Shown piece by piece: positions 41,940-44,620 of a DNA stretch of 64,000 bases. The stretch covers positions 821,581-885,580 of the forward strand of contig NC_057755.1 of the NCBI RefSeq assembly GCF_004010195.1, in the 5' to 3' direction. Origin of the DNA: Chiloscyllium plagiosum. Taxonomy: Eukaryota. A model generated the notes under the pieces. That model was not told where the DNA came from, made no database searches, and was given only the letters and a program-made list of their open reading frames with translations. Each line of letters opens with the position of its first letter. Position 1 is the first letter of the stretch. A program made the translations under genes and the position numbers.

Positions 41940-44620
41940 GGCTTCTCTGCCGAGATAATGAATGCCTTTTACTTCCATATAGTGCCTAATTTGTGGACGA
42001 CTCCGAAAGCATATCTGGAGTCTGTTTAAATGTTACCTGAACTACCTTCACTGATAATAAAGGCTCTGATGAGGGCGAATAATTCTGCAGCTTCTGCAGA
42101 TGTCAAGCACGACAGCCTTGAGGAGCTCAAAGGGGGTGCAAATGGTGTACTCCGTCAGTGTCGGTCGGTCTGAGTGTCTGAATGAAGACCCATCTGTGAA
42201 CATGATCACTTCAGGGTTGCCTATTGATGTCTCAAAGAAGTCAGGGCACGGGTTGACAATCTGCTGCACTAAATCTAAGCAATCATGGTGTTCCGCAGAG
42301 GCTTCCCGGGTGACAGGAAGAAGAGTGGCGGGGTTTAAGGTGAGGCAACGCTGAAGGGAGAGGTTGGCCTGGAAGAGACCTCTTAGCCTGTTCTCCGATT
42401 GTAAAACGTTGAGTTGCTGCCGAGTTAAGCGGCAGGGATCTCGAATGGGGAACCAGAACTGTGCATAGATAATCCAGGGCAATGGGGCTGGATTTCTCTG
42501 CCGTTACCACATCACTTTAAAAGGCCTGCATTCCCCTTAAAACAGCTGCAATTGTACAGTGTAGAAGGGTATAGGGCGCCGGAGATCCCCAGGGACCTGT
42601 GTGAAAATATGGGATGCATATCCCTCTTTATCAGTCACATAGAGTTGCAACGGCTGTGGATAGTCCGGAATCCCCAGACCAGAAGTGGACATTTCAAAAT
42701 GTTTGAGTTCTGTGAACGCCTATTCCATTTCAAGTGTCCAACTCACCTTTGCAAGCTGCTTTGGTAAGGATGCCTCCCGTCGGACGTAAATAGCACGTTG
42801 GTCAGGAATCCAGTGCCTGCAATAATTAATCATGCCCAGAAAAGCTAGCAGCTGAGCCCGTGTGGCAGGCGGGTTTAGTATTAGCTGGTACCCGCTTCTT
42901 TGACAGTGCTCTGAGGCCACGCGAGAGTTCACATCCCAGGTAGTGTATTTTCTCCCGTATTTTGTCTATGGAGACTTTGTTTCCACCCTGTGCCAAGCAG
43001 TGGAATAAGGCAACAGTGTCTTGTATGCAAGCATCAGCAGAGGTGGAGGCCACTAACAAGTCGTCAGTACACTGAAGCAAGATATTTTGGAATGGTGGCG
43101 GGTTCTGAGTGTCCGATGTACTGCAGAAGCATATACAGTGGGGCTGTCCATATACCCCTGGAGTAGCCGTGCTCATGTATAATGGCGGCCTCCCTAAGTA
43201 AAGGTACTGGCTCTCAGGGGACAACTTGATGGAGAAAAGGGCTGAACGGAGTTCGGTTACAGAAAAGCAAGTTGCTGAGGCAGAGATGCTGATGAAAATT
43301 GTGTTAGTGTCAGGAACTGCTGGGGAGCAGGGAACAACATTGACATTGATTGCCCGTAGGTCCTGAATGAAGCACCATTTCCCTGGCGTTCCAGTGTTTT
43401 GAATGGTCTGGAGAGGGGTATTGCAGGAACTGGTCGTAGGCAGTATGATGCCCTGTTACAAGAGGGAGTCAATAACCGGTTTGATTCCCTCTCTTCCCGC
43501 TGGGGCAGGGGGGAACTGTCGTTTTGACGGCAGTGCAGCTCCCTGTTTGAGTGTGGTAGTATGTGGTGTGGCAGATAGCACGAGGACTGCATCATTTGAA
43601 TGCTGAGCCCAGAGCGAGGCTTGAAGGTCGGACAAGAGTAGGGGGTCTACGTAAGAGAGGGCAGTGGCCAGACTTTATTTGGTGAAGGTGGCCTGTACTG
43701 GTACGAGAGTGCAGCGCACACAGAACTCATTCTTCCCTGTTTGTGCAATCTTAACCTCGACGGCAGTTGCAGGGTCAAGGGGCGCAAATTGCAGTGGTCG
43801 TTTTTGCAGTCGCACCGTCATAGCTCCCAAGTCCTTGGGGAGCGATAGGCTCTTGATGATGAGGAAAATATGTGGAGTCGAGGTCGGATCGTGGCAGAAC
43901 AATGCAGACTGTTCTGCACACTGCTGGACTTTCGCTGCTCCCCCTTCTGATCCCATAATACACAGTCAAGTCAAAATCATTGGGTGGTGAGAAACATGGG
44001 GGACCGCAAATGCAGTGTCGGGTAATAAGCCTGTGGGCCTGAGGCAATGCAGTGAAACTGACAGAGGAATCATCCTGCCAATATCACAGCGCAGGAAGGA
44101 TACTGTGAGGGATGGAAAGGCAGTGGGCAATAGGGAGAAGAGGGGGTCAAGGAGAGCACGCAAAGATGTGTATGAACACGACCAGATGTAGATGCGACTT
44201 GTGGGGGTGTGAGGACCCCGGGCTGCAGAAAATGGCTGTCTTCAGCATAATGTAATGTGTGTGAGGGATCTTGAACGTGAGAAGCTGGGGAAAGCAATGA
44301 ATGCTACCGTTTAATTTACAGAGTTTGCCAGCTCAGGAGGACTACTGGGCAGGAGGCAGAGATTATCGCTGTGCCAAGAGCAGTGGCAGTACCTATGCTA
44401 AGCATAAATAGGAATTTTACTGGCTGTACTATGGGTACTACAGAGACACACACGTTGTGAATAGTTTGTGAATGAGGAGAGAGTTCCGCAGAGGGAAGTG
44501 CAGATGAGTATGTGGCCCGGGAGTCCACCAAGACTTAAATAGGACGACCCCCACCTCCACGTCTATCATTGGATTCTCAGCCGGAGAGTGGGAAAGGAAT
44601 ATAGAGGCGGCCTGCAGCAC
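41940..44620 (-). pseudogene. pol: ERV pro-pol remnant: protease, 2H-phosphoesterase-like domain, RT, RNase H
   Basis: Motifs listed above; many stops and frameshifts. Confidence 0.85.

Follow-up and report, generated by a model that had tools for sequence, protein, structure and literature searches.

A decayed endogenous retrovirus in the shark Chiloscyllium plagiosum carries, between protease and RT, the remains of a 2H phosphoesterase-type domain, and in the retroviral lineage to which this copy belongs the distal of the two His-led motifs mostly reads H-x-Pro instead of H-x-Thr/Ser. We have hardly any doubt that the domain is of 2H ancestry, and the proline was very probably fixed while the virus still replicated. 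The provirus, ~6.9 kb on the minus strand, lies in a 64-kb window of contig NC_057755.1 (the window being the whole stretch of DNA that was analysed, to which all positions refer). Its features are the following:

46541..47206 (ends approximate), minus strand: 5' LTR, 74% identity to 40362-41000
44660..45900, minus strand: likely gag remnant with many breaks, by position and sequence reading only
44294..44600, minus strand: protease remnant (VLVDSRAT ... LCKLNGSIHC), frameshifted, by sequence reading
43700..44200, minus strand: decayed 2H/CNPase-like domain in at least two frames, with stops, by copy alignment, newt Pol and profile matches; its fold is taken from a sister copy, L109
44046..44054, minus strand: proximal motif HCI with the in-frame His at 44054-44052, HCT in many other copies
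43864..43872, minus strand: distal motif HIF, H-x-Pro in most of the lineage
42550..43640, minus strand: RT and connection remnant (tblastn E 8e-57 with newt Pol; RVT_1 E 0.007)
41873..42300, minus strand: RNase H remnant (Pfam RNase_H E 2.5e-6)
41001..41840, minus strand: short stretch, possibly an env remnant after internal deletion, by position only
40362..41000 (ends approximate), minus strand: 3' LTR, pairs with the 5' LTR

The paired LTRs and the order protease-insert-RT-RNase H, compared with newt and fish Pol, identify the element as an endogenous retrovirus. As the LTRs are 74% identical over 677 columns (K2P distance 0.24), the provirus is old. The likely gag remnant has no Pfam match; sequence reading reveals a knuckle-like CRFCDKRDHWAAISH near 44800-44756 within it. 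Pfam gave no match for the protease remnant either; its terminal residues align weakly (E 0.016) with the end of the protease in the profile of the homologues. No integrase match was detected after the RNase H, the long Pol homologues ceasing to align at 41840-41873, and a Pfam search of 41001..41840 in three frames was without result. Inspection of the approximate LTR ends yielded neither a convincing primer site nor a convincing target duplication, and no tRNA gene is present in the 64-kb window. The provirus is embedded in a degenerate ~28-bp satellite that is present on both sides (38300-40270 and 47220-47500). A 39-bp satellite with >260 copies occupies 51300-64000, including a 500-N gap at 52185-52684, and accounts for the many long ORFs in that region. 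Another pol fragment from a decayed LTR retroelement, likely of Ty3/Gypsy type (RT_RNaseH_2 E 8e-12), was observed at 2619-3818 on the minus strand.

An earlier note on this DNA had proposed a 2H-type domain between protease and RT in a copy that is dead. The copy is indeed decayed, frameshifted and interrupted by stops, and the domain is borne out by the motifs of its homologues and by the insert of a newt Pol, the evidence from the fold being weak. This newt protein, found via a natural RT stretch, is an intact Pol with protease, insert (motifs HCT and HVS) and RT. Its insert matches the window with E 9e-6 and, when searched against the shark genome, gave matches at 149 of the 150 scored places (321 candidates). 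A family profile built from 15 natural stretches retrieved 292 of 1.84 billion proteins at E<=0.001, and ~43995-43770 of the window matched the profile with E 5e-18 among six frames. In the best 150 of the 292 homologues, motif 1 is HxT in 112/124 readable rows and motif 2 is HxT/S in 136/147 readable rows; the spacing of the two His is 63 in 66/116 and 59 in 1/116, and HxP and YxP each occur at the distal motif in 1/147. The retroviral domain family overall thus carries the two Hx(T/S) motifs of the 2H superfamily. Named homologues (20 clusters looked up) comprise perch, pipefish, tilapia, zebrafish, newt and bamboo-shark records and are mostly teleost; the nearest of them are bamboo-shark proteins, in keeping with a shark host.

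Matches to the 2H families of Pfam are weak but recur. PF13563 matched weakly in 4 of the 15 natural members (best E 0.0044) and PF02834 in 4 of the 15; in a wider set, PF13563 was found in 7/93 members and CNPase PF05881 in 2/93 (E<=0.1, best 0.011). Sister copy L109 gave no match to PF05881, the window's own three frames matched no 2H Pfam family, and PDB sequences, searched twice with a profile, yielded no 2H protein. In word-based protein searches none of 5,176 candidates scored with the frame of the earlier note, and the newt domain retrieved itself only, among 549. Within the shark genome we could sort the domain by motif and context (30 best loci and 40 hand-picked ones) into at least five families, four of them with ordinary motifs (HVT/HVT twice, HCT/HVS and HCT/HVT) and the fifth being the clade with distal Pro. 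Further divergent copies of the domain were also observed (L055, L066, L086 and L096).

The minus-strand frame originally described for the domain, with its single stop, is present as quoted, as are the protease end LCKLNGSIHC at ~44323-44294, the ~650 bp that follow it up to RT, and the two His codons (44049-44047 and 43872-43870), which lie 59 codons from each other. However, it does not form a continuous coding frame. When the window copy is aligned with 21 of 30 loci from the genome (22 copies in all), both it and its duplicate L002 lack nucleotides that most copies have, near 44086 (2 nt), near 44029 (4 nt) and near 43988 (3 nt), and near 44210 the window copy has 1 nt more than most. Around motif 1 this frame agrees with each of five natural open copies at 2/17 residues, whereas the frame of His 44054 agrees at 7, 10, 11, 11 and 13 of 17. 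These matches, together with the rarity of a spacing of 59, show that LHC (His 44049), which had been taken for motif 1, arises by chance out of frame; the real motif, HCI at 44054-44046, lies five bases away. His 43872 was rightly recognised as the distal catalytic His. For the suggestion that PHIF is a decayed H-x-Ser, the His is right but a Ser ancestor is not supported, as the lineage is mostly Pro and the copy is nested in the Pro clade; L002, a 94%-identical duplicate of the window copy, reads HTS at this motif, and Ser is possible as a derived state on the window copy's last branch. Related copies mostly keep both His, and the modal spacing in the natural homologues is 63, not 59. An in-frame PHVS at ~43998, which looks like a perfect distal motif, was rejected; other copies read SHLA, FHLA or HYLS there. 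Codon phase, taken in bins of 60 nt, gave too noisy a signal for frame assignment.

For the distal motif, copies were clustered at 88% identity, so that duplicates are counted once, which left 26 clusters on the window's side; the copies used are a minority of 383 candidates for the Pro clade. Among 21 readable cluster representatives the third residue is Pro in 16, Phe in 2, Ala in 2, Arg in 1 and Ser in 0, and the 16 Pro clusters use two codons (CCT 7, CCC 9). Ser is carried by L002, by members of the L112 cluster (the representative being unreadable) and by L078, which is outside the 26 clusters yet inside the Pro clade in the DNA tree. Both His are largely kept (20/23 and 19/22 readable clusters; median column conservation 0.73), and in L109 they are H56 and H119, 63 apart like the modal spacing of the family. 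The lineage of the window copy therefore has two His at family spacing, but mostly lacks Thr/Ser two residues past the distal one; judged from its sequences, it is a 2H-derived variant and not a canonical 2H member.

A DNA tree of 34 copies splits the Pro clade from its sister family C, which has an HxS distal motif, at a support of 100, and places the window copy deep inside the Pro clade. The RT tree comprises 46 of 75 rows, with families A, B and E thinned to three each and without a named reference virus; in it the Pro clade (support 77) and family C adjoin the newt element, and the Pro-bearing L072 is grouped with family C (support 66). As Pro is spread across independent insertions and nested in the tree in this way, it was most likely fixed in replicating virus, and its fixation would most likely date to the base of the clade or slightly earlier. 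One sub-clade (L028, L112, L113, L120; support 100) has lost the proximal Thr and carries Ala or Pro instead, and another (L008, L020) has Asn in place of the proximal His. L072 closely resembles the bamboo-shark predicted protein P0103, both reading Tyr-x-Pro distally, and this insertion possibly predates the divergence of the hosts. Near-identical copies occur in groups of up to 10 per cluster on contig C8 and on unplaced contigs (L008-L021, L112-L130), which suggests that single old insertions were multiplied by segmental duplication.

Selection was assessed in pairwise comparisons of natural copies, by dividing the differences at third codon positions by those at first/second positions; the pairs are non-independent, and intervals come from codon resampling. 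Between two Pro-bearing sub-clades the ratio for the domain is 2.12 (1.70-2.63) and 2.27 (1.76-2.90) in two reference frames, compared to 2.20 (1.87-2.58) for RT; duplicate pairs gave 1.30, 1.18 and 1.08. An earlier, smaller comparison had given 1.50 for the domain against 1.77 for RT, and 0.56 and 1.06 for duplicates. With a third-position excess equal to that of RT (about 2.2), the domain appears to have remained under purifying selection between the Pro-bearing sub-clades. For the motif-losing sub-clades and the window's branch constraint looks weaker, with 1.6-1.7 against 2.39 for RT, and 0.97-1.14 against 1.84 (3-4 pairs).

A single-sequence model of the newt domain (pLDDT 44) was discarded. 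The model of L109, based on 93 sequences (pLDDT 66), is good from residue 80 and poor before residue 60. In a Foldseek search with it, CNPase entries take up the first 31 of the PDB rows listed (one of them titled only 'human phosphodiesterase'), with probabilities up to 0.96; the best CNPase match has E 0.029 and a TM of about 0.39, and none was found at E 0.001. Using VIA-align, mouse CNPase 2xmi (Z 5.2, rmsd 4.4 A, 127 aligned) is the only one of 48,161 chains with Z>=5, although such values lie within the range of common arrangements. CNPase, a 2H fold, is thus on top in both searches, but the scores are weak and a sister copy was modelled; the lines of evidence point the same way, each of them weakly. 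On this basis the domain is predicted to be CNPase-like in fold. Entries for AKAP7, ns2, VP3 and Acb1 are absent among the structural matches listed, which for a model of middling quality is weak evidence. The top viral fold matches (BFVD Q9WHI8 and A4GTG3) are envelope polyproteins of walleye retroviruses with E 0.04, a weak match that suggests a related domain within their Env.

As its function we favour that the domain healed or bound RNA ends or nucleotides bearing a cyclic phosphate, since the nearest structure, CNPase, acts on 2',3'-cyclic phosphates. Our best explanation, for which belief and doubt are about evenly balanced, is that the window holds a broken CNPase-like Pro-motif domain whose lineage used both His on 2',3'-cyclic-phosphate RNA ends or nucleotides; to this substrate class combined with a working His pair we give slightly less than an even chance. 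By its position and by retroviral biology, the domain would be translated within Gag-Pol, packaged into the particle and delivered with RT, where it might open or bind cyclic-phosphate ends, e.g. those of a nicked tRNA primer or of genomic RNA, and the activity of the HxP domain may be lower or changed. Mouse CNPase T311A is near-dead (PMC4643303, Table 1), and according to that paper every 2H enzyme has Thr or Ser there. PMC4201822 describes E. coli ThpR T127A as fully active and the distal hydroxyl as likewise dispensable in yeast Cpd1. K/R at the place of the compensating Arg of ThpR, five residues past the distal His, occurs in 0/150 homologues (best 150 of 292).

The domain of the Pro lineage may, with a smaller but real share of probability, already have been a dead enzyme that was kept folded as a spacer for the processing of protease and RT, or as a module that binds or acts as a decoy, e.g. 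against host CNP. The need of CNPase for its distal Thr, as tabulated in PMC4643303, would agree with this, as would the sub-clades that later lost the proximal Thr or His while the domain overall was still constrained; for a decoy one can also point to host CNP, which a table of PMC7471995 gives as a binder of HIV-1 matrix that blocks particle formation. However, both His lie above the median column conservation, with synonymous codon change, other 2H enzymes are active without the distal hydroxyl (PMC4201822), and nothing in our analysis supports a decoy role.

The earlier note's suggestion that the domain degraded 2-5A or cGAMP, both of them immune second messengers, we consider unlikely. 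PMC9503650 links further viral 2H domains to the cleavage of 2-5A and cyclic oligonucleotides, multi-exon OAS genes exist in the shark genome (15 matches), and a position in Pol would deliver the domain at entry. But CNPase is the nearest structure, with AKAP7, ns2, VP3 and Acb1 absent among the matches listed, and most named homologues are teleost; to our knowledge, teleosts largely lack OAS. The predicted fold, all matches being weak, thus leaves an anti-2-5A/cGAMP role unsupported, and processing of RNA ends, the other option raised at the time, would fit better. The multi-exon OAS cluster lies at G000:C25:15317927-15378388, with a second, weaker locus on C2.

It is highly improbable that Pro and the other motif changes merely reflect decay after insertion of a live virus with ordinary HxT/HxS. 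Decay is seen in every copy, Ser is present in L002, L078 and the L112 cluster, and family C has HxS; but the same site would have had to change in 16 independent insertions with two Pro codons, and Pro spans internal branches that show viral-phase selection.

Tentatively, and with doubt prevailing, we put forward that this shark retrovirus lineage replicated across several germ-line invasions with HxT/HxP, either as a new working 2H design or as a CNPase-like capture that was becoming a non-catalytic decoy. If true, HxT/HxP would break the rule of Thr/Ser in all 2H enzymes; in its decoy form, the domain would be directed against host CNP or nucleotide signalling and would have been reached stepwise. 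The families in this one genome, at least five, make up a natural series in which four have ordinary motifs and one has distal Pro. If the Pro form is active, the textbook 2H motif is looser than stated; if it is inactive, the domain was selected for a second, non-catalytic job, which may be the real reason why retroviruses carry it.

Coronavirus ns2, rotavirus VP3 and phage Acb1 are virus-encoded 2H proteins that act as 2',5'-PDEs or cyclic-nucleotide PDEs and keep HxT/S at both motifs. They share the 2H superfamily and viral coding with the shark domain, but are not among its listed structural matches. Vertebrate CNPase (mouse 2xmi, rat 2ilx), the top structural neighbour of the L109 model, likewise has two His-led motifs; the shark domain differs from it in being shorter, at 12-18% identity and with weak scores, and CNPase requires both Thr. 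ThpR and yeast Cpd1 are 2H enzymes on cyclic phosphates in which the distal hydroxyl is dispensable (PMC4201822), but in them an Arg or Tyr compensates, whereas the retroviral family is without K/R at the ThpR position (0/150); moreover, the evidence on these enzymes comes from alanine substitution, while the shark lineage has proline. Closest in kind are the fish epsilon-like retroviruses, compared here via citing papers: some ray-finned fish epsilon-like ERVs encode CNPase according to a statement in PMC4977317 (citing Basta 2009), and a list in PMC9503650 (citing Mazumder 2002) names 2H domains in fish retroviruses. In the literature searched we found no functional study of a retroviral 2H domain, and the main text of a shark ERV paper (Han 2015, PMC4422223) contains neither 'phosph' nor 'domain'. 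The retroviral 2H/CNPase domain is thus already in print, and the HxT/HxP variant is the sole new part, as far as a literature search not aimed at proline can tell. Indeed, it is this distal H-x-Pro that sets the shark lineage apart from the HxT/S of the fish retroviral family, in which HxP occurs in a single one of 147 readable rows (best 150 homologues).
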